DNA of 41,094 nucleotides, taken from a virus (lineage: Duplodnaviria; Heunggongvirae; Uroviricota; Caudoviricetes). This document shows, piece by piece, positions 20,567 through 40,280 of the stretch (its first letter is position 1; each line of letters opens with the position of its first letter). The stretch lies in IMG/VR virus record IMGVR_UViG_2872152978_000011; one strand, written 5' to 3'. Position numbers and translations under genes: made by a program. The notes beneath the pieces were generated by a model. It was not told the origin of the DNA. It worked only from the letters and a program-made list of their open reading frames with translations, and did not search any database.

Positions 20567-22168
20567 TCACCCGGAGAAGGTAAATCCCTCAAGAGGCAGC
20601 AACTCTGCCAGTCGCTCCTCCGGCCACTCCGGCAGACGCATCAGGACGTCTGTCAACCAGGCATGCGGCTCCAGACCGTTGCGTTTCGCGGTTTCCAGCA
20701 AGCTCATTATTTGCGCGGCGCGTTCTCCCGCCATCTGCGAACCGGCGAACAGCCACGATTTTCTGCCCAGAACCACGTTTTTGATGGCCCGTTCACACAC
20801 ATTATTATCCAGCGGCACCGCACCATCTTCCAGGAAGCGGCTCAGTTCCACGCGATGAGACAGCGCATAGGCAATGGCTTTGTGTAATGCCTTTCCCGGA
20901 GAACATTGCGGTTCCTGCTCTTCAAGCCATGACCACAGTTCTTCCAGTATCGGACGGGCATAACGCTGTCGCCACTGGCGGATTTTTTCCACGGGGCGGC
21001 TACTGATCTTCTTCTCAAGACGGTACAACCCCGCGATTTTCTTCACGGCTATGGCAGCCCGTGGATCTTTACTGATTTTATACAGGTCGGCGAAGCCCCT
21101 GCGGGCATGGGCCCAGCATCCGGCCAGCGTGATCTCCGGCACTTTGTTTGCCAGAGTCCGGTATGCTTTATGTCCGTCGACAACCAGCGTCCCGCCCCAG
21201 CCCTGAAGCCAGTTTTCAGGATACTCATGGCTACGTCCGGTCCGGCAGTCGAAGCACACAACTGACGGTCCCGTCCTTTCTCCACTGACGTATGCCCACT
21301 GATAACCGGAGCAGGATTTACCGCCTTTCTTCGTGTTCAGGATCTTCAGGGTAGTCTCATCTGCATGCACCACCGGACGGTTTATCAACTCGCGATGGAG
21401 TAACGCCGCCAGGGGAGATAATGCGGCACCCGCCGCGCCAACCATGTCAGCCATCGAACTGACGGGCAGCCCGACATCTGAACGGGCAAAGACCTGTTGC
21501 TGGCGATACAGAGGCAGGTGGTCACCGTATTTATTGATGATCACCTGTGCGATGACTGATGGCTCAACGGCACTTTTCGGGAGGATATGTGCCGGCATTT
21601 CACCGCTGAACACCTTCTGGCAACAGGGACAACTGTATTGCGGACGGACATAACGGTTCACCACAAAGTGAGCGGGAATATACTCCAGTTTTTCACTCAC
21701 CGCATCGCGGATATAGTGCAGCGGCTCGTCACATTCAGGGCAATGGTCAGTGTCCGGCTGGATAATTTTTTCCACCCGTGGAAGATGAACCGGTAAGGGT
21801 TTGCGTATCGGGCGTGAACGGGACGCTTTTTCATCTTCTTCAGGGGATTGCGGGAGCAGTTTATCCAGATGTGCGGTAAGCGCGGCGATATCGGCATCAA
21901 CATCCTCTTCGAATAGGGAGCGTTGCATACCAGCCAGCGTTTCACATTTTTTTCCGAAGCGCTGTTGACGAACCAGTTTCAGCATTTCTTCCAGAAGCTG
22001 GATGCGCCGGCTTTTCTCCAGTAATTCCCGCTCTTTTTCGGCATTCTCCGACATGACTTCTTGTACCATGGCAAGTGCCATAGCACGCAGTTTTTCGATG
22101 TCATTCGTGGTGTTGAGAGCGGAGATATCCATACAGGGGAGTATACCACTCCAGATACGGATATTCAT
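20567..22168 (-). CDS. IS66-family transposase (orf3) of element X, 533 aa
   Basis: Homologous to, but clearly distinct from, the copy A/B transposase (same CPEC/DDE architecture). Confidence 0.85.
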   Translation of the reverse strand: MNIRIWSGILPCMDISALNTTNDIEKLRAMALAMVQEVMSENAEKERELLEKSRRIQLLEEMLKLVRQQRFGKKCETLAGMQRSLFEEDVDADIAALTAHLDKLLPQSPEEDEKASRSRPIRKPLPVHLPRVEKIIQPDTDHCPECDEPLHYIRDAVSEKLEYIPAHFVVNRYVRPQYSCPCCQKVFSGEMPAHILPKSAVEPSVIAQVIINKYGDHLPLYRQQQVFARSDVGLPVSSMADMVGAAGAALSPLAALLHRELINRPVVHADETTLKILNTKKGGKSCSGYQWAYVSGERTGPSVVCFDCRTGRSHEYPENWLQGWGGTLVVDGHKAYRTLANKVPEITLAGCWAHARRGFADLYKISKDPRAAIAVKKIAGLYRLEKKISSRPVEKIRQWRQRYARPILEELWSWLEEQEPQCSPGKALHKAIAYALSHRVELSRFLEDGAVPLDNNVCERAIKNVVLGRKSWLFAGSQMAGERAAQIMSLLETAKRNGLEPHAWLTDVLMRLPEWPEERLAELLPLEGFTFSG

Positions 22169-22174
22169 TATTTT

Positions 22175-22567
22175 TCACTGAGTTAGCAGTGTATTTTGCG
22201 TGTTTTCAGGGCGCAGTTCAGGTTCATTCTGCCAGACCCATTTCGTCAGGTCATGTCCCTTAACCTGCTGCCAGTCAACACCGGCAATCAGCCAGTTAAA
22301 CTCGTCGGGAGTGAGGTGCCAGGCAGTGTCATTTGCACGTGGCCAGCGGAAGCTGCCTTTGTGCAGACGGCGGGTACACAACCACACCCCGTGTTTATCC
22401 CACCGGAGAACTTTGATACGCGAACGGGCTTTGTTAACAAAGACGAAGGCGGCTCCCTCATGCCATGTCGACCGGAGTTCATCCTGTATATACTGCGTCA
22501 GTGAGTCGATGCCCCGGCGCATGTCAACAGGTTTAATTGCGATGAAGACATTATCAGGACTGAGCAT
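22175..22567 (-). CDS. IS66-family orf2 (TnpB) of element X
   Basis: 130 aa, alignable by eye with the copy A TnpB (…WLCTRRLHKGSFRWP versus …LCLFTRRLEEGQFIWP). Confidence 0.8.
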   Translation of the reverse strand: MLSPDNVFIAIKPVDMRRGIDSLTQYIQDELRSTWHEGAAFVFVNKARSRIKVLRWDKHGVWLCTRRLHKGSFRWPRANDTAWHLTPDEFNWLIAGVDWQQVKGHDLTKWVWQNEPELRPENTQNTLLTQ

Positions 22568-22671
22568 ATTTGAGTGCCCTGAAGAGTAAGCGTAAACTGA
22601 CCGCCGTATGTAGCCATTAAGCCTGTATTGGTAACGTAGGTGCCCACCTTTTCAACTAGTGGACACCTGTT

Positions 22672-23091
22672 ATGGAACAGAAAGCATTATCTGCAGAACC
22701 CCGCAGATCATTTTCAAATGAGTTTAAACTTCAAATGGTTAAACTGGCTTCACAACCAGGAGCCTCTGTTGCCCGTATTGCCCGGGAACACGATATCAAT
22801 GATAACCTGCTGTTCAAATGGCTCAGGCTCTGGCAGAACGAAGGGCGCATATCGCGGCGTCTTCCGGTAACAACCTCTTCTGACACTGGCGTTGAATTAT
22901 TACCTGTGGAGATAACGCCGGATGAGCCGAAAGAACCGGTGGCTGCTCTTACTCCGTCTTTATCTACTCAGACTACAGTTAGTGCCAGCTCCTGCAAGGT
23001 GGAGTTCCGTCACGGTAACATGACGCTGGAAAATCCTTCACCAGAGCTGCTCACAGTGTTGATCCGTGAACTGACCGGGTGGGGACGATGA
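22672..23091 (+). CDS. IS66-family orf1 (TnpA), copy B
   Basis: Identical protein to 19692-20111. Confidence 0.85.
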   Translation: MEQKALSAEPRRSFSNEFKLQMVKLASQPGASVARIAREHDINDNLLFKWLRLWQNEGRISRRLPVTTSSDTGVELLPVEITPDEPKEPVAALTPSLSTQTTVSASSCKVEFRHGNMTLENPSPELLTVLIRELTGWGR

Positions 23092-23438
23092 TCTCACTCC
23101 CGTCAGGCACCCGCATCTGGCTCGTTGCTGGGATAACCGATATGCGTAAGTCTTTCAACGGGCTGGGTGAACAGGTACAGCATGTGCTGAATGATAATCC
23201 CTTCTCCGGTCACCTGTTCATCTTCCGTGGCCGACGGGGTGACATGATTAAAATCCTGTGGGCTGATGCTGATGGTCTGTGCCTGTTCACCAGACGCCTG
23301 GAGGAAGGCCAGTTTATCTGGCCTGCTGTGCGTGACGGCAAGGTATCCATTACCCGCTCGCAACTGGCAATGCTCCTCGATAAGCTGGACTGGCGTCAGC
23401 CAAAAACATCCCGCCTTAACGCACTGACAATGTTGTAA
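23079..23438 (+). CDS. IS66-family orf2 (TnpB), copy B
   Basis: Identical protein to 19345-19704. Confidence 0.9.
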   Translation: MGTMISLPSGTRIWLVAGITDMRKSFNGLGEQVQHVLNDNPFSGHLFIFRGRRGDMIKILWADADGLCLFTRRLEEGQFIWPAVRDGKVSITRSQLAMLLDKLDWRQPKTSRLNALTML

Positions 23439-23468
23439 AAATGTCATGGCCGGATTATAAAAACGGCC

Positions 23469-25061
23469 ATGAATCAAAAATACCTCATTCGCATTGCAGA
23501 ACTGGAATGCCAGCTCCGTCAGAAAGACCAGCAACTGAGTCTGGTTGAAGAGACGGAGGCCTTCCTGCGCTCTGCACTGGCCCGCGCCGAAGAAAAGATC
23601 GAAGAAGATGAACGGGAAATAGAACATCTGCGGGCTCAGATAGAAAAACTGCGCCGGATGCTGTTCGGTACCCGTTCTGAAAAACTGCGTCGTGAAGTTG
23701 AACAGGCTGAGGCCCTGCTGAAACAACGCGAACAGGACAGTGATCGTTACAGTGGGCGGGAAGACGATCCGCAGGTTCCCCGCCAGTTGCGACAGTCTCG
23801 TCATCGTCGCCCGTTACCGGAGCATCTGCCCCGCGAAATAAATCGCCTGGAGCCAGAAGAAAGCTGTTGCCCGGAGTGTGGCGGTGAGCTGGATTATCTG
23901 GGGGAAGTCAGCGCAGAACAACTGGAACTGGTGAGCAGCGCTCTGAAAGTGATCCGCACAGAACGGGTAAAAAAAGCCTGTACAAAATGTGACTGCATCG
24001 TTGAAGCACCGGCACCATCCCGTCCGATAGAGCGTGGTATCGCGGGCCCGGGGTTACTTGCCCGCGTGTTAACGGGAAAATACTGCGAACACCTGCCACT
24101 GTATCGTCAGAGTGAAATTTTTGCCCGTCAGGGTGTCGAACTGAGCCGTGCATTACTCTCCAACTGGGTTGACGCGTGCTGCCAGTTAATGACGCCGCTG
24201 AATGATGCTCTGTACCGTTATGTGATGAACAGCCGCAAAGTTCACACTGATGACACACCAGTAAAAGTGCTGGCACCGGGCAGGAAGAAGGCGAAAACAG
24301 GATATATCTGGACGTATGTCCGGGATGACAGGAATGCCGGTTCGCCAGAGCCTCCGGCGGTCTGGTTCGCCTACTCACCGGACCATCAGGGTAAACATCC
24401 GGAGCAGCACCTTAGTCCCTTCCGGGGTATCCTGCAGGCAGATGCGTTTAATGGTTACGATCGGCTGTTCAGTGCCGAACGAGAAGGCGGCGCGTTGACG
24501 GAAGCAGGATGCTGGGCTCATGCGCGGCGCAAAGTCCACGATGTATATATCAGTACCAAAAGCGCGACAGCGGAAGAAGCCCTGAAACTAATCGGTGAGC
24601 TGTACGCCATCGAGCACGAAATACGCGGGTTGCCGGTGTCTGAACGCCTGGCGGTCAGGCAAATGCAGAGTAAACCGCTACTGACTTCCCTGTATAAGCT
24701 GATGCAGGAGAAAGAACAGACGTTATCGAAAAAATGCCGTCTGAGAGATGCGTTCCGGTATATCAGGAAGCACTGGGTTGCGTTGTGCAACTTCAGTGAT
24801 GATGGTCTGGCTGAGGCGGATAATAATGCCGCGGAAAGAGCGCTTCGTGCAGTCTGTCTCGGAAAGAAAAACTTTATGTTCTTCGGCAGCGATCACGGTG
24901 GAGAGCGTGGTGCGCTACTGTACGGGCTGATCGGCACCTGCCGACTGAACGGTATCGATCCGGAAGCGTATCTGCGCTATATCCTGAGCGTACTGCCGGA
25001 ATGGCCTTCCAACCGTGTTGACGAACTCCTGCCATGGAACGTAGCACTCACCAATAAATAA
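23469..25061 (+). CDS. IS66-family transposase (orf3/TnpC), copy B
   Basis: Identical 530-aa protein to 17722-19314. Confidence 0.9.
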   Translation: MNQKYLIRIAELECQLRQKDQQLSLVEETEAFLRSALARAEEKIEEDEREIEHLRAQIEKLRRMLFGTRSEKLRREVEQAEALLKQREQDSDRYSGREDDPQVPRQLRQSRHRRPLPEHLPREINRLEPEESCCPECGGELDYLGEVSAEQLELVSSALKVIRTERVKKACTKCDCIVEAPAPSRPIERGIAGPGLLARVLTGKYCEHLPLYRQSEIFARQGVELSRALLSNWVDACCQLMTPLNDALYRYVMNSRKVHTDDTPVKVLAPGRKKAKTGYIWTYVRDDRNAGSPEPPAVWFAYSPDHQGKHPEQHLSPFRGILQADAFNGYDRLFSAEREGGALTEAGCWAHARRKVHDVYISTKSATAEEALKLIGELYAIEHEIRGLPVSERLAVRQMQSKPLLTSLYKLMQEKEQTLSKKCRLRDAFRYIRKHWVALCNFSDDGLAEADNNAAERALRAVCLGKKNFMFFGSDHGGERGALLYGLIGTCRLNGIDPEAYLRYILSVLPEWPSNRVDELLPWNVALTNK

Positions 25062-25288
25062 GCGTCAATACGGTGCTCCGTTGACGCTTACCCTGAAGAC
25101 ATCGGTAAGTTGTGACGGCTGACAGCACATCCGTACTCCACCGGGAAGGAAGAGCGTGACTGGCTCATTCGTGACGGGCTGTGGTACATCAGCATGCAGT
25201 GGTGGCGCAATATGAACGTAAGCGTACAGCCTGAACCGTCTGGTCAGAATCTGACGAATTAAACAAAGTGGTGTCCACCAAATAAGTA

Positions 25289-25690
25289 GTGGGAACCAAA
25301 GTGTCAGATATGCAGAAAAATGTGAATCCCGGCAGGCGAAAAGGCTGCCCTAATTATCCTCCCGAATTTAAACAGCAGCTCGTTGCTGCCTCCTGTGAAC
25401 CCGGGATATCCATCTCAAAACTTGCTCTTGAAAATGGCATTAACGCCAATCTGTTGTTCAAATGGCGACAACAATGGCGCGAGGGAAAGCTGCTATTACC
25501 TTCTTCAGAGAGCCCCCAGCTACTTCCTGTGACTCTCGATGCAGCTGCCGAACAGCCAGAATCGCTCGCAGAGGATCCGGAAACCCTCAGTATCAGCTGT
25601 GAGGTAACGTTCCGGCACGGGACGCTCCGCTTCAATGGCAATGTCAGCGAAAAGCTCCTGACTCTGCTGATACAGGAACTGAAGCGATGA
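25289..25690 (+). CDS. IS66-family orf1 (TnpA) of element Y
   Basis: 133 aa HTH protein (...GISISKLALENGINANLLFKWRQQW...). Confidence 0.8.
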   Translation: MGTKVSDMQKNVNPGRRKGCPNYPPEFKQQLVAASCEPGISISKLALENGINANLLFKWRQQWREGKLLLPSSESPQLLPVTLDAAAEQPESLAEDPETLSISCEVTFRHGTLRFNGNVSEKLLTLLIQELKR

Positions 25691-26034
25691 TCCCGTTACC
25701 TTCCGGGACCAAAATTTGGCTGGTTGCCGGTATCACCGATATGAGAAATGGCTTCAACGGCCTGGCGGCAAAGGTGCAGACGACGCTGAAAGACGATCCG
25801 ATGTCAGGTCACGTTTTTATCTTCCGTGGGCGTAATGGCAGTCAGGTAAAGCTCCTCTGGTCTACCGGCGATGGACTGTGTCTGCTGACCAAACGGCTGG
25901 AGCGCGGCCGCTTCGCCTGGCCGTCAGCCCGGGATGGCAAAGTGTTCCTCACACCGGCACAGCTGGCGATGCTCCTTGAAGGTATCGACTGGCGGCAGCC
26001 TAAAAGACTGCTTACGTCCCTGACTATGTTGTAA
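25687..26034 (+). CDS. IS66-family orf2 (TnpB) of element Y
   Basis: MIPLPSGTKIWLVAGITDMRNGFNGL...; start overlaps the orf1 stop. Confidence 0.9.
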   Translation: MIPLPSGTKIWLVAGITDMRNGFNGLAAKVQTTLKDDPMSGHVFIFRGRNGSQVKLLWSTGDGLCLLTKRLERGRFAWPSARDGKVFLTPAQLAMLLEGIDWRQPKRLLTSLTML

Positions 26035-26082
26035 GCCTCTTTATCCTGGTCGACGCTGAATGAGCCTGGTAATATACCCGGT

Positions 26083-27621
26083 ATGAGCAGCTCACTTCCT
26101 GACGATATCAATGCACTGAAACGTCTCCTTGCCGAACAGGAGGCGCTGAACCGTGCCCTGCTGGAAAAGCTGAACGAGCGTGAACGCGAAATAGACCATC
26201 TGCAGGCACAGCTGGATAAGCTGCGCCGGATGAACTTCGGCAGCCGCTCCGAAAAAGTCTCCCGTCGTATCGCACAGATGGAAGCTGACCTGAAGGCACT
26301 TCAGAAAGAAAGTGATACCCTTACCGGTCGGGTTGACGACCCGGCCGTGCAGCGCCCGCTGCGTCAAACCCGCACCCGCAAACCGTTCCCCGAATCACTC
26401 CCCCGCGATGAAAAACGGCTGCTGCCGGCAGCGTCATGCTGCCCGGAATGTGGAGGCTCACTGAGCTATCCGGGTGAGGATGCCGCCGAACAGCTGGAGT
26501 TGATGCGCAGCGTCTTCCGGGTTATCCGGACTGTACGTGAAAAGCATGCCTGTACTCAGTGCGATGCCATCGTGCAGGCCCCCGCGCCTTCACGGCCCAT
26601 CGAGCGGGGTATCGCAGGACCGGGGCTGCTGGCCCGCGTGCTGATCTCAAAGTATGCAGAGCACACCCCGCTGTACCGCCAGTCTGAAATGTACGGCCGC
26701 CAGGGCGTGGAGCTGAGTCGTTCACTGCTGTCGGGCTGGGTGGATGCATGCTGCCGGCTACTGTCACCGCTGGAAGAAGCGCTTCAGGATTATGTGCTGA
26801 CTGACGGTAAGCTCCATGCTGATGACACGCCTGTCCCGGTGCTGTTGCCAGGCAATAAGAAAACGAAGACCGGGCGGTTATGGACCTACGTTCGTGACGA
26901 CCGTAACGCCGGGTCAACGCTGGCGCCGGCGGTGTGGTTCGCTTACAGCCCGGACAGAAAAGGCATCCATCCGCAGACCCATCTTGCGGGGTTCAGTGGT
27001 GTACTGCAGGCGGATGCATACGCCGGGTTCAACGAGCTGTACCGGGATGGCCGGATAACGGAAGCCGCCTGTTGGGCTCACGCCCGCCGTAAAATCCACG
27101 ATGTGCACGTTCGCACCCCGTCAGCCCTGACGGAGGAAGCGCTGAAACGGATCGGCGAACTGTACGCCATCGAGGCAGAGATAAGGGGAATGACGGCGGA
27201 GCAGCGCCTTGCCGAACGTCAGTTGAAAACGAAACCGCTGCTGAAATCCCTGGAAAGCTGGCTGCGTGAAAAGATGAAAACCCTGTCGCGACACTCAGAA
27301 CTGGCGAAAGCGTTCGCATACGCCCTGAACCAGTGGCCGGCGCTGACGTACTATGCAGATGATGGCCGGGCTGAGGCGGACAATAACATCGCTGAAAATG
27401 CGTTGCGGATGGTCAGTCTGGGCCGCAAAAACTACCTGTTCTTCGGTTCGGATCATGGAGGAGAGCGGGGAGCGCTGCTGTACAGCCTGATCGGGACGTG
27501 CAAACTGAACGGAGTGGAGCCAGAAAGCTACCTCCGCTATGTACTTGACGTCATAGCCGACTGGCCGATAAACCGGGTCGGCGAACTGCTCCCCTGGCGC
27601 GTAGCACTGCCGACTGAATAA
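26083..27621 (+). CDS. IS66-family transposase (orf3/TnpC) of element Y, 512 aa
   Basis: CPECGG...CTQCD zinc ribbon plus DDE region; homologous to the other two TnpC proteins. Confidence 0.9.
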
Positions 27622-27666
27622 CACATCCCCGTCAATACGGTTCTTGCTGCACGCTTACATATGAAC

Positions 27667-29311: not shown

Positions 29312-29695
29312 CTACTGCATTTTTACCAGGTCATCTTTTACCAGACTGGTGGCCATGCCGGCAGGCACGCGAAACACCGTTTCCGGCAGAACCAGTTTCA
29401 CTGGCTTATCCTGTGTGGCGTGAAGCGCGTCAATATGCAGCGTCGTCCGTGCCACCACCCTGACCAGCTCATCCGTATTCTGAATCATCCTCTCCGGCGG
29501 AACTGCCTCCCCGTTATTTTCCTGCCCGGTAAGCACACTTGCCTGGTTGTCAGTGCCATCCACACCACCAAGCTCCTCTTCCAGCTCTGCCACACGCTGT
29601 GCGATATCTGCCGCGCTTCCCGACATATCAGGCTCACGCCCCAGCAATTCTGACAGCTCTTTCAGACGTTTCAGATTCTCGTCTTTCTTTGCCAT
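29312..29695 (-). CDS. FI: DNA packaging/head assembly protein FI
   Basis: From the internal start MAKKDENLKRLKELSELLGREPDMSGS...HIDALHATQDKPVKLVLPETVFRVPAGMA... (lambda FI-like). The upstream head genes are absent; IS4 begins at 29736. Confidence 0.8.
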   Translation of the reverse strand: MAKKDENLKRLKELSELLGREPDMSGSAADIAQRVAELEEELGGVDGTDNQASVLTGQENNGEAVPPERMIQNTDELVRVVARTTLHIDALHATQDKPVKLVLPETVFRVPAGMATSLVKDDLVKMQ

Positions 29696-29735
29696 ATTTC
29701 TTTCCGGTTCAGTAAAAAACGGGGGCATACTGCCC

Positions 29736-31160
29736 TAATGCCAGTCAGTTAAGCAACTGACTGGCTCTTTTTCGGGGCTGTGGGGTATTTCCAGGGCCTC
29801 TCCTTTACCACTATCGGGAAGGCCCTTCCCCTTCTCGTCGGTAATTTCACAAGTTGTCCCATACTTGCAAGATCGCGCATCAGCTCCGGTATACGTCCCG
29901 GTGAAGCGCCCTGCAATGTCATCAGCATTCTCATCACCATTCCGCATGATTCTGAGAAACTCAGTTGATTCGGCCAGTAACCTTTCAGATGTTCCGCCAT
30001 TTTAATCATCTGATATCTCACCAGATTATAAGCCAGTAAGACACCCCACAGCTCTTGCTCCACAAGCTCCGGCTTTTTACTTCTCAGCGTCAGCCTGCTC
30101 AGTTGCATCGTCTGTTTTATCTCCCTGTATCCCAGTTCAATTTCCCAGCGATGACTGTACAGATCCGCCATTTCTCCTCCGGGGAAGCGCATGGCGTCCG
30201 TCATCGACGTCAGCAGATGGCAGACTTTTCCTTTGCGCGTCACGGTCAGCAGGCGGGCTGTCACTTCATTTCCCAGTCCCGGCCACTTTTTTCGTGCCTG
30301 CGGGCTGGTTTTCAGCTTCACCAGATGATCGCCTTTACCCAGTTTTCTGAGCTCTTCATATTGCGCTCCCTTTCTGAGAGGTATCATCCAGTGGCGGTGT
30401 TCTCCCGCCAGGCTCCAGGCATTTAACAGTCCCAGTGAGTAATAACCTTTATCCATTAACGTCAGAGTGTTATCGCCGGTTTGTTCTATAAGTTGCTCAG
30501 CAAGCTCATTTTCGCTGTTCTTCATCGTGCCGAAGGCTGCAGCCGTCAGCAGATGGCTGGTCAGTTCCATCTGGCAGACCATTTTGACCTGCGGGTAGAG
30601 CGCCGGGTTCCCGGCATGTGTCTGGCGGGGGAAGGCTGCATCGTTCTCTGGTGTATCCGGTGTGCGCCAGAACACACCATCGATGGCCAGCAGGGTCAGG
30701 CCGCACCAGTGCGGATGCGGCGTGGCGTTATGCCAGAGCTGCGCTGTTTTCGTGAACACGCGGCGGACAGCCTCACTTCCCAGGCGCTGGCGGGCCTGAA
30801 TAACGGCACTGGGGCAACGAAGGGGCGATTGCCCGGCAGCATGATGTCCAGGCGATTCACAATCTGGTGAAGAGGTTCTTTACGCTCAAGCGCCATGCCA
30901 ACAATACACCAGACCATCATTTCGAGGGGAAGACGGCGCTTGCGTAGCGTTACAGTACCTGATTCGGCAAGGCAACGAGAGATGAGTTCGGGGTCGAGGT
31001 AATCCCCCAGAGAAGTCAGTGGGTTACGCAGAGAATCGTAACGGGATACCAGATCAAGAGCCTGTCCAATGTGCATAAAAAAATCCGGAAACAAGTGAGC
31101 GTTTCCGGATTCTTACACAGCCACTGGATCGGTCAACTGATCCTTAACTGATCGGCATTA
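29736..31160 (-). mobile_element. IS4 (1425 bp here) with inactivated transposase
   Basis: Terminal repeats TAATGCCAGTCAGTTAAGC (29736) and, reverse-complemented, TAATGCCGATCAGTTAAGG (ending 31160); no matching target duplication in the flanks. Confidence 0.9.
29749..31076 (-). pseudogene. IS4 transposase, frameshifted
   Basis: N-terminal part (MHIGQALDLVSRYDSLRNPLTSLGDYL... in ORF 30696-31094) and C-terminal part (ORF 29749-30759) are in different frames; the break is around 30760-30820 (my best guess 30808-30814). Confidence 0.85.
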
Positions 31161-31915
31161 CTGACTGGAACCCCTCTTTATATTTGCACTTTTCCGCTGA
31201 ACGATCGCGTCCGGCGGTGGAGCTGCTTGCCAGAGTGCCGCTGGAAAATGTCGAATATGTCGCCGATCTTGGCTGTGGCCCAGGTAACAGCACCGCCCTT
31301 CTACAACAACGTTGGCCTGCGGCCAGGATAACAGGCATCGACTCGTCTCCGGCGATGATTGCTGAAGCGCGCAGTGCTTTGCCAGACTGCCAGTTCGTGG
31401 AAGCAGACATCCGCAACTGGCAACCGGTACAGGCACTCGATCTGATTTTTGCTAATGCCTCACTGCAATGGCTGCCTGACCACTACGAATTGTTTCCTCA
31501 CTTGGTTTCTTTACTTAATCCGCAGGGCGTGCTGGCAGTACAGATGCCAGATAACTGGCTGGAGCCGACCCATGTGCTCATGCGCGAAGTTGCCTGGGAA
31601 CAAAACTACCCGGATCGCGGGCGTGAGCCGTTGGCTGGCGTTCATGCTTACTACGATATTTTGAGCGAAGCCGGATGTGAGGTCGATATCTGGCGAACCA
31701 CCTACTATCACCAGATGCCGTCGCACCAGGCGATTATCGATTGGGTGACCGCCACTGGATTACGTCCGTGGTTACAGGATCTGACCGAGAGCGAACAGCA
31801 GCTTTTTCTTAAGCGCTACCATCAGATGCTGGAAGAGCAGTATCCACTGCAAGAGAACGGACAGATACTGCTGGCATTTCCGCGTCTTTTTATTGTTGCC
31901 CGGCGTATGGAGTAA
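31161..31915 (+). pseudogene. tam: Trans-aconitate 2-methyltransferase gene lacking its start codon (IS4 junction)
   Basis: The frame reads (T)[47 protein letters not shown]... (SAM-methyltransferase motif) starting directly at the IS4 end; the annotated TTG at 31184 is an internal Leu codon. Confidence 0.8.
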
Positions 31916-31918
31916 ATA

Positions 31919-32833
31919 TCACGTCAGCTGGTAATGACGATCGGGAAGAATTTTTGCTGGAATTTCGGCTTCATCGTTCATCTGTAAGAGGTCAATTTCA
32001 ATAGCGTTGCAGATGGCATCCAGCGGTAAATCATTGTTTTCAGTACCGAACGGATCTTCCAGTTCTTCCGCCAGACAATCCAGCGAAATAAAAGTGTAGG
32101 AAATCAGCACAGAGATAAAAGGCGTCATGTAATGCAGGTCCACGACCAGCGCGAACGGCAGCATGATACAAAACAGATAAACAGTACGATGCAAAATCAG
32201 GGTGTAGGCAAAGGGAATTGGCGTATAGGCAATGCGCTCGCATCCTGCCAGGACCGCTGAAATATCATTAAGCCGATCGTTGAGGCTAATAAACAGGATT
32301 TCTGAAAGCTGCCCATTGCGGCGCTGAACCGCCAACCACTCCCCCATTATTAACAAGATACGGTTAGCTGGAGAGTTCGAAGCCAGTACAGGCTGAAGAT
32401 CTTCAGTCTTGAGATAATGAGCCAGCACTTCCGCCTGTGGCTGTTTGCGTAATGTCATGCGTAAACAGTGGGCGAAGGCGATTTGCAGCCTGGCAAACTC
32501 CCTTACACTTGCCGAATCCGGCAATGTCGTTTTTACCTCACGTAGTAACGACCGTGAGGCAATCATCAACTGTCCCCAAAGTTTTCGCGCTTCAACGTAA
32601 CGGGCGTACCCGGCATTATTACGAAAACCAAGAAAAATGGCGATGGCGACACCGAGAATGCTGAACGGTGCGAGGGTGAATTTGATGCCCAGATGCGTGT
32701 ACCAGGGCAGCATGAAAATAACAGCGATAGAAAAGAGAAAATTGAGTAGTAAGCGCGAGGATATCTTGGATAATACTGAGCCGTGCCAGACAAAAATACG
32801 GCGCAGCCAGTGTTGTTGTGGACGAACAATCAT
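31919..32833 (-). CDS. yneE: Bestrophin-like UPF0187 inner-membrane protein
   Basis: 304 aa from the internal Met (MIVRPQQHWLRRIFVWHGSVLSKI...); convergent with tam, as in the tam-yneE-uxaB arrangement I recall for E. coli K-12. Confidence 0.75.
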   Translation of the reverse strand: MIVRPQQHWLRRIFVWHGSVLSKISSRLLLNFLFSIAVIFMLPWYTHLGIKFTLAPFSILGVAIAIFLGFRNNAGYARYVEARKLWGQLMIASRSLLREVKTTLPDSASVREFARLQIAFAHCLRMTLRKQPQAEVLAHYLKTEDLQPVLASNSPANRILLIMGEWLAVQRRNGQLSEILFISLNDRLNDISAVLAGCERIAYTPIPFAYTLILHRTVYLFCIMLPFALVVDLHYMTPFISVLISYTFISLDCLAEELEDPFGTENNDLPLDAICNAIEIDLLQMNDEAEIPAKILPDRHYQLT

Positions 32834-33029: not shown

Positions 33030-33938
33030 TTAGCACAACGGGCGTACAGCTTCGCGCATCCCTTTTTCAAGAATCGCATCCAGGTCATTAGCAACCTGCT
33101 CGACCAGACCAGGCACTTGCGTCAGGTCCTGCTCCCAGTGGTCTTTTTCTGCCAAAACAATCGCTACCAGTTCCGGGGTGCCGATAACACGGTCACGATG
33201 CTGGCTCCAGAGTTGCTGATAACGTTCCAGCCAGTGTGCATCGTCCTGTACCGGATATGTTTCTCCGTTACGCTCACCGCGATAGAAGGCAATCAATGCC
33301 GTTAATGCGAAAGTAAGGCGCGCCGGAAGTGTGCCGTTTGCCTTCTGCCCTGCCAGCAGCTGCGGCAGGATGCGGGTGCGGAACTTGGTCATACCGTTGA
33401 GCGCGATAGACAGCAGCTGATGCTTAATGTACGGGTTACGGAAACGCCCGGTGACTGCACTGGCGAAAGATTCCAGTTCATCACGAGGCAAATCCAGTAC
33501 CTGAATAATTTCTTCGTAGATGGCTTTTTCAACGAATGCGCAAATTTCAGCATCGTTCATCGCTTCACCTACGGTATCCAGCCCTGCCTGGAACGCCACC
33601 GGCACCAGCGCGGTGTGCGCACCGTTGAGGATTGCCACTTTGCGTTCTTTATACGGTTTAATATCGTCAACAATCAGCACATTGAGCGGATATTTGTCCA
33701 GGCGCAGCTCAGTCGCTAAGGATTTCGGCCCCTGAATCACAAACAGGTAAAAGTGTTCAGCGGTGTCGAGAAAACCATCGTGATAACCCAGTTCTTCTTC
33801 CAGTTTAGCCACTTCACCACCCCGGTAGCTGTCGGTTTTGCGCGTCAGCTTAGGCAGAGTGACGGACGTCACATTACCCACTTCGTTTTCACCATCCACA
33901 AACAGCGTAAAAAAGCGAAGATGTTTTGGCACAGCCAT
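33030..33938 (-). pseudogene. uxaB: Chimeric ORF: P2-like tail tube (FII) N-terminal ~41 codons fused in frame to the 3' ~260 codons of uxaB (altronate oxidoreductase)
   Basis: N-terminus [41 protein letters not shown] resembles P2 FII (MALPRKLKYLNLF...[12 protein letters not shown]); from ...[29 protein letters not shown]... to the stop it is UxaB C-terminal sequence. Junction near 33811-33819. Confidence 0.8.
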
Positions 33939-36637: not shown

Positions 36638-36928
36638 ATGATTGGACAATTTTTAAGTGCAACAGAGATTTTAGCAAAGAACTATGTTCGTAATAAAATG
36701 GTTAAAAATCCATTTTATTCGAATTTAAAATGGAATTTTATTGAAAAAAACATCATAAGATTAACATCCTCACCGGTTAAATCAGTACTTTGCATATCAG
36801 CTTTTTCATTTGTACTACTTTATGTTGGATATTTAAACGAATTATTTATAAAAAATAATCTTTTACATTATTTCCCGTTTAGGCATTCATTAACCGAATG
36901 GCAAACAACCATTTTAAGTGGCCGGTAA
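36638..36928 (+). CDS. Hypothetical protein, AT-rich, with a hydrophobic segment; 3' end runs into IS1
   Basis: 96-aa ORF whose stop codon lies inside the IS1 terminal repeat; contains VLCISAFSFVLLYVGYL; no family recognised. Confidence 0.3.
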   Translation: MIGQFLSATEILAKNYVRNKMVKNPFYSNLKWNFIEKNIIRLTSSPVKSVLCISAFSFVLLYVGYLNELFIKNNLLHYFPFRHSLTEWQTTILSGR

Positions 36929-36938
36929 TGACTCCAAC

Positions 36939-37442
36939 TTACTGATAGTGTTTTATGTTCAGATAATGCCCGATGACCTTGTCATGCAGCTCCACCGATT
37001 TTGAGAACGACAGTGACTTCCGTCCCAGCCTTGCCAGATGTTGTCTCAGATTCAGATTATGTCGCTCAATGCGCTGAGTGTAACGCTTGCTGATAACGTG
37101 CAGCTTTCCCTTCAGGCGTGATTCATACAGCGGCCAGCCATCCGTCATCCATACCACGACCTCAAAGGCCGACAGCAGGCTCAGAAGACGCTCCAGTGTG
37201 GCCAGAGTGCGTTCACCGAAGACGTGCGCCACAACCGTCCTCCGTATCCTGTCATACGCGTAAAACAGCCAGCGCTGACGTGATTTAGCACCGACGTAGC
37301 CCCACTGTTCGTCCATTTCAGCGCAGACAATCACATCACTGCCCGGTTGTATGCGCGAGGTTACTGACTGCGGCCTGAGTTTTTTAAGTGACGTAAAACC
37401 GTGTTGAGGCCAACGCCCATAATGCGTGCACTGGCGCGACAT
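36939..37442 (-). CDS. insB: IS1 InsB reading frame
   Basis: 167 aa, identical to 1720-2223. Confidence 0.9.
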
Positions 37443-37636
37443 CCGACGCCATTCATGGCCATATCAATGATTTTCTGGTGCGTACCGGGCTGAGAGGCGG
37501 TGTAAGTGAACTGTAGTTGCCATGTTTTACGGCAATGAGAGCAGAGATAGCGCTGATGTCCGGCAGTGCTTTTGCCGTTACGCACCACGCCTTCAGTAGC
37601 GGAGCAGGAAGGACATCTGATGGAAATGGAAGCCAC
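37361..37636 (-). CDS. insA: IS1 InsA
   Basis: 91 aa, near-identical to 2142-2417. Confidence 0.95.
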
Positions 37637-37700
37637 GCAAGCACCTTAAAATCACCATCATACACTAAATCAGTAAGTTGGCAGCATTACCATAAATGCG

Positions 37701-39363: not shown

Positions 39364-39374
39364 TGGATTTGCCC

Positions 39375-40280
39375 CTATATTTCCAGACATCTGTTATCAC
39401 TTAACCCATTACAAGCCCGCTGCCGCAGATATTCCCGTGGCGAGCGATAACCCAGCGCACTATGCGGATGCCATTCGTTATAATGCTCGAACGCCTCTGC
39501 AAGGTTCTTTGCTGCCGTTAACCCGTCTGGTTTGGGCATGATACTGATGTAGTCACGCTTTATCGTTTTCACGAAGCTCTCTGCTATTCCGTTACTCTCC
39601 GGACTCCGCACCGCCGTGTTCTTCGGTTCAAGTCCCAACATCCGGGCGAACTGGCGTGTTTCATTAGCCCGGTAGCATGAACCATTATCCGTCAGCCACT
39701 CCACTGGAGACGACGGAAGATCGTTGCCGAAGCGGCGTTCCACCGCTCCCAGCATGACGTCCTGTACTGTTTCACTGTTGAAGCCGCCGGTAGTCACCGC
39801 CCAGTGCAGTGCCTCACGATCACAGCAGTCCAGCGCGAACGTGACACGCAGTCTCTCTCCGTTATCACAGCAGAACTCGAACCCGTCAGAGCACCATCGC
39901 TGATTGCTTTCTTTCACGGCCACTCTGCCTGTATGTGCCCGTTTCGATGGCGGTACAGCAGGTTTTCGCTCAAGCAACAGCGCATTCTGGCGCATGATCC
40001 GGTAAACACGTTTGGCATTGATCGCAGGCATACCATCAAGTTCTGCCTGTCTGCGAAGCAGCGCCCATACCCGACGATAACCATACGTGGGCAGCTCTCC
40101 GATAACATGGTGTATACGGAGAAGCACATCCGTATCATCAGTGTGACGACTGCGGCGGCCATCCATCCAGTCATCGGTTCGTCTGAGAATGACGTGCAAC
40201 TGCGCACGCGACACCCGGAGACAACGGCTGACTAAGCTTACTCCCCATCCCCGGGCAATAAGGGCGCGTGCGCTATCCAC
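39375..40280 (-). CDS. insD: IS2 transposase OrfB (InsD)
   Basis: 301 aa, IS3-family DDE transposase matching IS2 InsD. Confidence 0.9.

Follow-up and report, generated by a model that had tools for sequence, protein, structure and literature searches.

The IS4 element that lies between the lambda-type packaging gene FI and the gene tam is best explained, with a probability of about 0.55, as a recombinant copy of a well-known insertion sequence, produced when two IS4 copies recombined and now marking the breakpoint of a chromosomal rearrangement. The window, by which we mean the whole stretch of 41,094 nucleotides that was analysed, is 100% identical to CP026840.1, which is probably Shigella dysenteriae ATCC 9753. 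The anatomy of the element, its flanks, the presence of the joint across the lineage and its polarity relative to E. coli maps were observed directly, whereas the recombination of two copies is inferred. The site is an ordinary scar of IS-mediated rearrangement, of a known kind, and adds one more documented instance in Shigella. Coordinates of the features discussed below are collected in Table 1.

Table 1. Features at and around the FI-IS4-tam joint (positions in the window)
Feature	Position	Strand	Remarks
FI (lambda-type DNA-packaging)	29312-29695	minus	127 aa; PF14000 Packaging_FI; last prophage gene before the junction
Capsid(E)-FI intergenic remnant	29696-29735		A-run 29714-29719, cggg, then GGCATACTGCCC
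IS4	29736-31160	minus (transposase)	1425 bp; 99% identity to annotated IS4 copies
IS4 terminal inverted repeats	29736-29754 and 31142-31160
Remaining transposase, native frame	29749-30809	minus	DDE domain, without N-terminus
Truncated N-terminal transposase ORF	30696-31076	minus	89 native and 37 out-of-frame residues (translation, ORF list)
Frameshift site	30810-30813		G4 run, G5 (GGGGG) in intact copies; transposase codon 88-89
tam (trans-aconitate 2-methyltransferase) frame	31157-31915	plus	98% identity to annotated tam
tam-side flank CTGACTGGAACC	31161-31172	plus	tam codons 2-5, right half of tam target
yneE (bestrophin family)	31919-32833	minus	intact; identified by annotation
Tail tube/uxaB fusion	33030-33938	minus	in-frame; 41 first tube codons and 261 last uxaB codons

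The IS4 element and its transposase frame

The ends of the element were set against two 1426-bp IS4 copies that bear target duplications. It begins with TAATGCCAGTCAG and closes with GATCGGCATTA, and its two ends, TAATGCCAGTCAGTTAAGC and TAATGCCGATCAGTTAAGG, are identical to those of both reference copies. With imperfect terminal repeats of about 18 bp starting TAATGCC and a length close to the expected 1426 bp or so, the element belongs to IS4, and over its full length it is 98.8-99.4% identical to RefSeq copies annotated as 'IS4-like element IS4 family transposase'. It shares with the E. coli IS4 of the K-12 insG type (IS4 family, subgroup IS4) 99% DNA identity, its terminal repeats, one transposase gene with Nterm_IS4 and DDE_Tnp_1 domains, and a preference for flanks made up of an A-run, 3-4 nt, a duplicated 12-13 bp, 3-4 nt and a T-run. 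It differs in carrying R422I, in being 1 bp shorter and in having no target duplication. Alignment with one of the 1426-bp copies gave two substitutions and one 1-bp deletion, and it is the resulting frameshift that makes the element 1 bp shorter. The length of 1425 bp proposed in an earlier sequence-only reading proved correct once the ends had been fixed; the interval that it assigned to the element, 29696-31183, does contain it but also takes in about 40 and 23 bp of flank.

The same reading had split the transposase into two frames, and alignment with the reference copies traced the split to the loss of one G from a run of five, so that the single uninterrupted DDE transposase gene of IS4, an element that uses no programmed frameshift, is broken here. 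Restoring one G yields a 442-aa transposase whose sole difference from the references is R422I. As it stands, a 336-aa ORF is called from a GTG at 30759, with an identical call in CP026840.1, while intact orthologous transposases at the same joint are 442 or 448 aa long and carry PF13006 and PF01609. The window IS4 is a mutated or mis-sequenced member of IS4, not a different element. The proposal that it is immobile does not hold up, as both its terminal repeats match those of active copies exactly and its gene is one base from intact; judged from sequence, it would be non-autonomous at most. Other IS4 copies were active in the lineage, as seen in a new insertion in FII with a 13-bp duplication.

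The frameshift had also been treated as a property of the junction, which comparison with relatives contradicts, since they share the joint mostly with five Gs. The run at 30810-30813 is G5 in seven related assemblies and G4A in three further ones, in which the frame is intact at the run (one of the three is broken at another G run); among the related assemblies compared, G4 was found only in CP026840.1 and in the indel-ridden CP026823.1. Because the FI-IS4-tam joint in related assemblies usually comes with an intact transposase, the frameshift is private to the strain. One G would have been lost later and separately from formation of the joint, either in the strain's copy or in the assembly, and the frameshift could be a homopolymer sequencing error.

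A crossover point inside the element was also sought by means of SNPs. All eight differences from the IS4 copy of E. coli FDAARGOS_1249 fall in the FI-proximal 620 bp, and no difference separates the three copies compared in the 800 bp nearest tam. However, this pattern is uninformative, because the third, unrelated copy has the window alleles at six of the eight positions.

Flanks of the element: prophage and tam

The 12-bp sequences on either side of the element, GGCATACTGCCC toward FI and CTGACTGGAACC toward tam, match at only 3 of 12 positions, and neither was found again elsewhere in the 41,094-nt window. Other IS4 copies show direct duplications of 12-13 bp; none of 11-13 bp is present here, and the earlier observation of unmatched flanks thus survived redefinition of the true ends. 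The missing duplication reflects later rearrangement, not a different transposition chemistry.

Each flank is half of an independent canonical insertion site, as would be expected of a hybrid IS. De Palmenaer et al. (2008; PMC2266710) reported that some elements of subgroup IS4 are strongly conserved in both target arms. On the FI side, GGCATACTGCCC (29724-29735) abuts the element, and the arrangement of A-run, 3-4 nt and 12 bp is the same as at three IS4 insertions bearing duplications. A terminator-like remnant, GGGCAGTATGCCC followed by CCGTTTTTT, lies on the minus strand at 29735-29723, and related prophages have a full hairpin at the matching site, 10-20 nt from the stop codon of the major capsid gene. 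By these resemblances the FI-side flank is recognizable as the left half of a canonical IS4 target together with half of the capsid-FI terminator hairpin. On the tam side, the reference is a simple IS4 insertion in tam of E. coli FDAARGOS_1249 (NZ_CP069459.1), which reads ATGT CTGACTGGAACC/IS4/CTGACTGGAACC CCTC. The insertion point, the orientation of IS4 and the IS4-tam junction sequence are shared with the window, and ATT-ACT replaces ATG-TCT in both, whereas the other side is lsrG-ATGT plus the duplicated CTGACTGGAACC in FDAARGOS_1249 and the prophage gene FI in the window. Identity by descent of the two insertions was considered and rejected: the flanking DNA is 98.0% identical, no closer than that of SE11. 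With only 98% identity in the flanking DNA, the tam hit in FDAARGOS_1249 is probably independent, and the site a hot spot.

After the IS4 end, tam resumes at CTGACTGGAAC where intact tam reads GGAGtaaaaaaATGTCTGACTGGAAC; therefore, ATG-T and the GGAG ribosome-binding site are gone. Loss of the start codon, with the IS4 end lying exactly after ATG-T, had been predicted and was confirmed against intact tam. The first codon is now ATT, supplied by the IS4 terminus, and gene callers give a 252-aa product from it. In the window sequence there is no Shine-Dalgarno sequence at this ATT and no promoter-like site pointing into tam, so that a start comprising ATG, Shine-Dalgarno sequence and promoter is no longer present. 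Since the in-frame ATT comes without a ribosome-binding site, it does not provide an alternative start of the kind that would speak against the loss. Having lost its promoter, ribosome-binding site and ATG, tam is probably silent; it is conceivable, though doubtful, that the in-frame ATT supplied by IS4 keeps the gene weakly translatable at what seems to be a recurrent insertion hot spot.

Orthology and synteny of tam with the tam-yneE-uxaB region of E. coli are retained, and tam-yneE-uxaB' is 98.0% identical to FDAARGOS_1249 and 97.8% identical to SE11. yneE forms part of this 2.65-kb chromosomal island, which lies between two prophage remnants; the exact YneE protein occurs in 367 index blocks, with the same context at every place listed. 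The right-hand boundary of the island is the tube/uxaB fusion, a second junction, to the prophage natively beside ihfA. Its breakpoint lies at 33815/33816 with a 2-bp overlap (BLAST against SE11 uxaB and the ETEC4088 tube gene); the tube portion is P2-like, and the product carries PF04985 and PF08125.

On the prophage side, the assignment of FI to lambda gpFI rests on its domain and on neighbours carrying PF05354, PF06763, PF06141 and PF16461; in related assemblies FII, Z, U, V, G/T and H come after it. Across 5,426 complete E. coli genomes, no FI matches its DNA at more than 81% identity. As first proposed, FI is the last lambda-like gene: no head gene occurs within the 41,094-nt window, and no prophage head or early genes are found at the locus. 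Compared with the ipaHd prophage of EIEC CFSAN029787, which has the lambda order E, FI, FII, Z, U, V, G, T, H, M, L, K, I, J, the window has its tail module in unchanged order, running from FI through J and lom to the tail fibre and ipaHd. From J to ipaHd it shares 99% identity with that prophage; identity between the FI-U segment and E. coli prophages is lower, at about 75-84%. Relative to the lambda/EIEC order, IS4 and tam stand in place of everything upstream of FI, J is split, and U is set apart from V by an IS66-family nest. This ipaH-carrying, lambda-like prophage is decayed in many other ways as well. Rfam and tRNA scans of the window returned nothing.

The joint in relatives and on E. 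coli maps

The FI-IS4-tam joint is present in 10 of the 10 places listed for the exact YneE protein. It also occurs, closed genomes included, in all places from the FI look-up that reach far enough, save PUGV01000524. That contig shows an apparent joint of the tam end of IS4 to ldtD, which we discarded as evidence because this draft contig is N-scaffolded through IS copies and hence unreliable. Both junction sequences (60 and 70 bp) are exact in nine independent assemblies from several projects and the tam-side sequence in six more, and short-read contigs break off precisely where IS4 ends and carry the same flank. The joint is old enough to be fixed in a Shigella lineage. One related assembly has a deletion from inside IS4 into the tail genes, beside an IS66-type element.

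In E. coli SE11 the order is tam(+)-yneE-uxaB, 28 kb, ydfI-ydfJ', tail fibre, J and onward to FI and capsid, and the same prophage, with ipaHd, is located at yecD in EIEC with its orientation unchanged. The earlier view that IS4 joins non-native neighbours is supported. However, on both maps the joint runs head to tail, from a higher map position into a lower one in the same orientation, and with this polarity a single colinear deletion cannot make it. The description of the site as a simple deletion junction is therefore contradicted by the gene order in SE11 and EIEC. The joint could have come from a deletion if the predecessor had been rearranged beforehand, or from reciprocal exchange; a plain deletion between direct IS4 copies needs earlier rearrangements, given the head-to-tail joint.

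The surroundings are heavily rearranged. To the left of the window lie IS-bounded blocks in mixed orientation (trg-cybB-gapC', mgtT and dcp-ydfI), and the locus lacks about 290 kb of DNA that in K-12 terms lies between trg and ihfA. This interval, which we take from the K-12 map to include essential genes such as tyrS, must for that reason be elsewhere in the genome. IS1, IS2, IS4 and IS66-family elements all occur within the 41-kb window, and other IS copies there have no duplications or lie beside deletions; one IS1 has a 1,492-bp adjacent deletion and no duplication. Relative to the IS-mediated scrambling and reduction of Shigella genomes, in which hybrid ISs without duplications stand at deletion or inversion breakpoints, the locus shares a high IS load, several ISs without duplications, decayed prophages and blocks out of E. 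coli order, with no difference in kind.

Origin of the joint

We propose that one IS4 copy inserted at tam codons 2-5, a typical IS4 target, and that another inserted in the capsid-FI terminator hairpin of the ipaH-carrying lambda-like prophage. Homologous recombination between the two would have left a single IS4 with its FI-side flank from one insertion and its tam-side flank from the other. The lsr side of tam is no longer adjacent at this place. The lack of a target duplication would follow because the flanks come from two separate insertions. Ngan et al. (2024; PMC11708052) reported recombination between ISs, along with adjacent deletion, as frequent causes of missing duplications, and the IS4 family, which uses cut-and-paste chemistry, has expanded in Shigella (PMC2266710). 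We lean toward a net loss of the DNA in between, rather than its relocation, in a predecessor that was scrambled already. Scans of GTDB representatives and IMG/VR turned up neither a second IS4 at the capsid-FI hairpin nor an intact copy of the exact hairpin; the former scan gave only a chance match in a Micavibrio MAG and the latter only a contig starting inside the same IS4 end.

Reciprocal recombination, whether by inversion or by translocation via an excised circle or duplication, is a tentative alternative in which nothing was lost, a reciprocal IS4 joining the prophage head genes to the lsr side of tam elsewhere in the genome. The head-to-tail joint relative to SE11 and EIEC has the polarity of a circle or duplication joint rather than that of a deletion, and both the blocks of mixed orientation left of the window and the trg-ihfA DNA that must be elsewhere are in keeping with such an event. 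The complementary flanks in the reciprocal product would be lsrG-ATGTCTGACTGGAACC/IS4 (ATGTCTGACTGGAACC then TAATGCCAGTC) and IS4/GGCATACTGCCC-capsid gene. However, the reciprocal junction, an IS4 end followed by GCATACTGCCC, was absent from viral contigs, and metagenome contigs gave six chance matches, none of the six preceded by IS4 sequence; these scans covered viral and metagenome collections and had low power, so that the missing junction is weak evidence. Brito et al. (2013; PMC3595036) found the full lsr operon absent from every Shigella genome surveyed, which also argues against simple relocation, as does the decay of the prophage in many other ways. It is doubtful, though conceivable, that FI-IS4-tam is no deletion scar but a novel joint that arose when IS4 mediated a tandem duplication or the excision of a circle, later re-integrated or trimmed; the 2.65-kb terminus piece (tam-yneE-uxaB') would then have been effectively transposed between prophages, with the head genes and lsr elsewhere.

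It seems unlikely that only one IS4, inserted either at tam or in the capsid-FI hairpin, was ever involved and was joined to the second site by an adjacent deletion or intramolecular transposition that removed the DNA between. Adjacent deletions are often the reason why duplications are missing (PMC11708052). The IS1 with its 1,492-bp deletion and the relative deleted from inside IS4 into the tail genes speak for this reading, and the far endpoint resembles a preferred IS4 target, the kind of site to which an intramolecular event would go. On the other hand, a cut-and-paste family (PMC2266710) does not readily give one-ended adjacent deletions, and the polarity of the joint is as much a problem here as for any deletion. 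That polarity makes one simple deletion on a colinear chromosome, from the prophage head genes to tam, highly improbable, even though the window has no head genes, no duplication and a tam cut off precisely where the IS ends: on the SE11 map, tam is found 28 kb beyond ydfI from the prophage with FI pointing away, the EIEC yecD site has the same polarity, and the tam-yneE-uxaB' island is itself cut on the right by the second prophage junction. Scarcely credible is an assembly artefact, by collapse or mis-joining through repeated ISs, as the source of the junction, the frameshift or both. A 1-bp homopolymer loss shared only by CP026840.1 and CP026823.1 is what such an artefact might look like, and homopolymer losses abound in the sister assemblies CP026823, CP026825 and CP026842. 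However, the loss of this G is the sole indel in 9.5 kb of the window assembly relative to 10 relatives, and the exact junction sequences in nine independent assemblies, with which short-read contigs agree, effectively refute the junction as an artefact.

Recombination between two IS4 copies thus remains our preferred reading. The site puts on record a single breakpoint from the scrambling of a Shigella terminus region by ISs and has little importance beyond bookkeeping. Two traps for annotation follow from the site: tam is called intact via an ATT start inside the IS4 end, and the IS4 'pseudogene' may be a homopolymer sequencing error. The site shows tam codons 2-5 and terminators made up of A-tract, hairpin and T-tract to be preferred IS4 targets. 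For genome scans, the absence of a target duplication at an IS is the mark of a rearrangement, the type of which is to be read from the polarity of its flanks against a reference map, with deletion not presumed.

The IS4 copy, its flanks and the start of tam

Sequence comparison agrees with the sequence-only reading that a copy of the insertion sequence IS4 separates FI of the prophage from tam; it is the only IS4 in the window. Its ends were set by comparison with two duplication-bearing copies, in FDAARGOS_1249 (L001) and FDAARGOS_944 (L002), both of which are 1426 bp long. The left end of IS4 is preceded by ...cagtAAAAAAcgggGGCATACTGCCC, which comes after the FI start codon (CAT, 29693-29695), and its right end adjoins CTGACTGGAACCcctcTTTATAT. 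The 12-mers abutting the element share 3 of their 12 bases; a target duplication is therefore absent, as had been proposed.

Three duplication-bearing IS4 insertions (the tam site, a site adjoining glgP, and the FII site of CP026805.1) share a common layout, in which 3-4 nt separate the duplicated 12-13 bp from an A-run on the left and another 3-4 nt separate them from a T-run on the right. The FI flank of the window matches the left half of this layout. It also keeps half of a terminator-type hairpin that related prophages have at this position, at a distance of 10-20 nt from the major capsid gene's stop codon. FDAARGOS_1249 has a simple, like-oriented IS4 insertion at the identical tam nucleotide, and there the element is bordered on its far side by lsrG...ATGT + CTGACTGGAACC. 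Since the tam-yneE-uxaB DNA of that strain is merely 98.0% identical to that of the window, no nearer than SE11, the two insertions are probably independent hits, and codons 2-5 of tam constitute a recurrent IS4 hot spot. Both flanks of the window element therefore look, by their layout, like halves of normal IS4 targets. Strikingly conserved target arms on both sides have been described for some members of subgroup IS4 (De Palmenaer et al., PMC2266710).

Uninterrupted tam reads GGAGtaaaaaaATGTCTGACTGGAACC. Compared with intact tam, the window copy lacks ATG-T, the Shine-Dalgarno sequence and all DNA upstream, confirming the loss of its start codon. The terminal bases of IS4 supply an in-frame ATT-ACT in place of ATG-TCT, which leads PGAP and other gene callers to annotate a "complete" Tam of 252 aa that begins at the ATT. 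No ribosome-binding site was found ahead of either this ATT or the in-frame TTG at 31184, and the sole promoter-like site of the region drives the transposase, pointing away from tam. Most likely, tam is silent. The tam of FDAARGOS_1249 is also called intact from an ATT, as it is in the loci L004-L025; because this start lies within the IS4 terminal repeat, the annotation conceals the disruption.

Coordinates of features in the window and in compared genomes
Feature	Genome	Position	Size	Details
IS4	window	29736-31160	1425 bp	TAATGCCAGTCAGTTAAGC to ...CTTAACTGATCGGCATTA; transposase on minus strand
P2-like tail tube::uxaB fusion	window	33030-33938		junction 33815/33816; in-frame; 41 tube codons + last 261 uxaB codons
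Tail-tip gene J	window	7310-10788	791 + 368 aa	two ORFs
First IS1	window	1705-2472		no target duplication (TGGCGATCG vs TTTTTTATA)
Second IS1	window	36924-37690		direct repeat of first IS1; no duplication
IS2-type element	window	39364-40693	1,330 bp	5-bp duplication
IS66-family nest	window	17691-27650		between tail genes V and U
Inverted copies in nest	window	17691-20197, 22586-25092	2,507 bp	perfect copies
TnpC in nest	window	26083-27621		
tam	FDAARGOS_1249 (NZ_CP069459.1)	13425-14183	252 aa	ATT start
IS66-type element beside truncated IS4	L017 (PSSQ01000002.1)	11740-14960		after first 233 transposase codons
Capsid-FI hairpin	EIEC CFSAN029787			AAAAACGGGAGCatttaGCTCCCG
Capsid-FI hairpin	E. 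coli M19			AAAAAAGGGGGtatatcGCCCCCC

Distribution and polarity of the joint

Exact-protein look-ups with FI, YneE and YdfI across NCBI assemblies revealed one arrangement common to many of them: sheath, tube::uxaB', yneE, tam, IS4, FI, FII, Z, U. The YneE sequence occurs in 367 index blocks, with the same context in 10 of 10 among the matches listed. The window itself corresponds to CP026840.1:4433378-4474471 (L021; 100% identity across 19,176 bp). Judged by the adjacent accession number, NZ_CP026841.1, which belongs to a plasmid of Shigella dysenteriae ATCC 9753, this chromosome is almost certainly that strain's, and the ipaH effector gene of the window fits the assignment. Junction sequences are identical in the related assemblies compared; the FI-IS4-tam joint is therefore real, old and fixed in a lineage. 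In one relative, L017, an IS66-type element comes directly after the first 233 codons of the IS4 transposase, and the remaining IS4 plus FI, FII, Z and U are missing, so that here another IS-adjacent deletion has cut into the junction.

We also compared the gene order with E. coli maps. The left end of the window carries ydfI, the last ~240 bp of the ydfJ side, IS1, ipaHd, tail fibre, lom and J. The order in SE11 is tam(+), yneE, uxaB, 28 kb, ydfI(-), ydfJ', tail fibre, J and so on, with the prophage capsid end as the part most distant from tam. In EIEC CFSAN029787 the prophage lies at yecD near aspS in the same orientation, with a capsid gene directly after FI, and its J-to-ipaHd end matches that of the window at 99% identity. 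Whichever of these sites is native, placing FI before tam in like orientation makes a head-to-tail joint. Duplication or an excised circle gives this polarity, whereas removing the DNA between two points on a colinear chromosome does not.

The tam-yneE-uxaB' segment is 2.65 kb long and ends on the right at a second junction, the tube::uxaB fusion. This junction, a product of illegitimate recombination at 2 bp of microhomology in which no IS took part, is kept in every related assembly. The P2-like prophage of the tube gene natively adjoins ihfA-pheT, which the K-12 map puts ~185 kb from uxaB. To the left of the window, CP026840.1 carries ydfZ, rspR, ydfG, dcp, IS1, mgtT, an IS3-type element and gapC'-cybB-ydcA-hokB-trg. 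These 10 kb comprise blocks that map to ~1.62 and ~1.49 Mb in K-12 and lie in mixed orientation, making the terminus region a mosaic of IS-bounded blocks. The trg-ihfA interval, ~290 kb of K-12-equivalent DNA, is absent at this place; since it contains essential genes such as tyrS, that DNA must lie elsewhere. Translocation or inversion accounts for at least some of the breakpoints that join these blocks.

The first IS1 parts the ydfI/ydfJ' remnant from ipaHd, an adjacency that is probably another rearrangement joint because EIEC CFSAN029787 has the ipaHd end at yecD. Beside the second IS1, a large gene with an MFS transporter annotation has lost 1,492 bp relative to E. coli ETEC4088, an IS-adjacent deletion. 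The IS2-type element, simply inserted between the ogr and hok genes of the P2-like remnant, serves as an internal control for an undisturbed insertion. In the IS66-family nest, the inverted copies flank a third element and are followed by a fourth; the nest is confined to the window strain and the relatives nearest to it (L020, L021), ~135 bp standing in its place in L004, L005, L007 and L016. The two ORFs of J together equal the 1159-aa J of SE11, and with this split the prophage tail module is defective too.

Transposase frameshift and mobility

Alignment with intact copies located the frameshift noted earlier: the transposase is one G short in a GGGGG run at 30810-30813. The frame is broken at codon 88-89, leaving a 126-aa N-terminal fragment and a DDE-bearing remainder in the original frame; with the G restored, the protein has 442 aa and differs from the references solely by R422I. 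The run is G5 in seven related assemblies, G4 in CP026840.1 and CP026823.1 only, and G4A in three others. One-base losses in G/C runs are typical of uncorrected long reads, and many occur in CP026823, CP026825 and CP026842. In these closed assemblies (CP026825.1, CP026823.1 and CP026842.1) such losses break the tape measure gene, Z, tam and the IS4 transposase, so caution is needed with any pseudogene called from them. In CP026840.1, the IS4 G-run is the sole indel in 9.5 kb. The frameshift could be either a genuine private mutation or a homopolymer error; it is a strain-private matter, possibly artefactual, separate from the joint.

The element had also been described as immobile, which is too strong: its ends are perfect, and IS4 still transposed in the lineage once the joint existed. 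CP026805.1 and its relatives (L006, L022 and L024) carry a second IS4 in FII, inverted, ~570 bp from the junction copy, and its clean 13-bp duplication (CACCGGATTTCCG) indicates transposition after the joint arose. The window copy would be more fairly termed non-autonomous.

Origin of the joint

We favor, at a probability of roughly 0.55, recombination between two IS4 copies at canonical targets, which would have left one hybrid IS4. Our estimates overlap and are not meant to sum to 1, since this recombination includes, as one variant, a reciprocal exchange in which nothing was lost; we hold that variant to be possible but doubtful. An adjacent deletion or intramolecular event involving one copy seems unlikely, although it and recombination between copies are both common causes of missing duplications (Ngan et al., PMC11708052). 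The sequence-only reading of a deletion junction was right in that the non-matching flanks speak against a simple insertion, but the one-step colinear deletion it implied is excluded by the polarity relative to SE11 and EIEC, and we give it very little credence. Least probable is an assembly artefact, given junctions that recur unchanged across assemblies, although for the frameshift alone the chance is higher.

Within the favored recombination between IS4 copies, we lean towards a net loss of the head and early genes and the lsr-proximal DNA in an already rearranged predecessor. This leaning rests on prophage decay elsewhere (the split J and the IS66-family nest between U and V), on IS-adjacent deletions visible in the window and in L017, and on the full lsr operon being missing in all Shigella surveyed (Brito et al., PMC3595036). 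The IS4 family uses cut-and-paste chemistry and has expanded in Shigella (De Palmenaer et al., PMC2266710). The element is a known IS4 in a public, annotated Shigella genome; it is nothing new in kind, and it acts as IS elements are known to act in Shigella.
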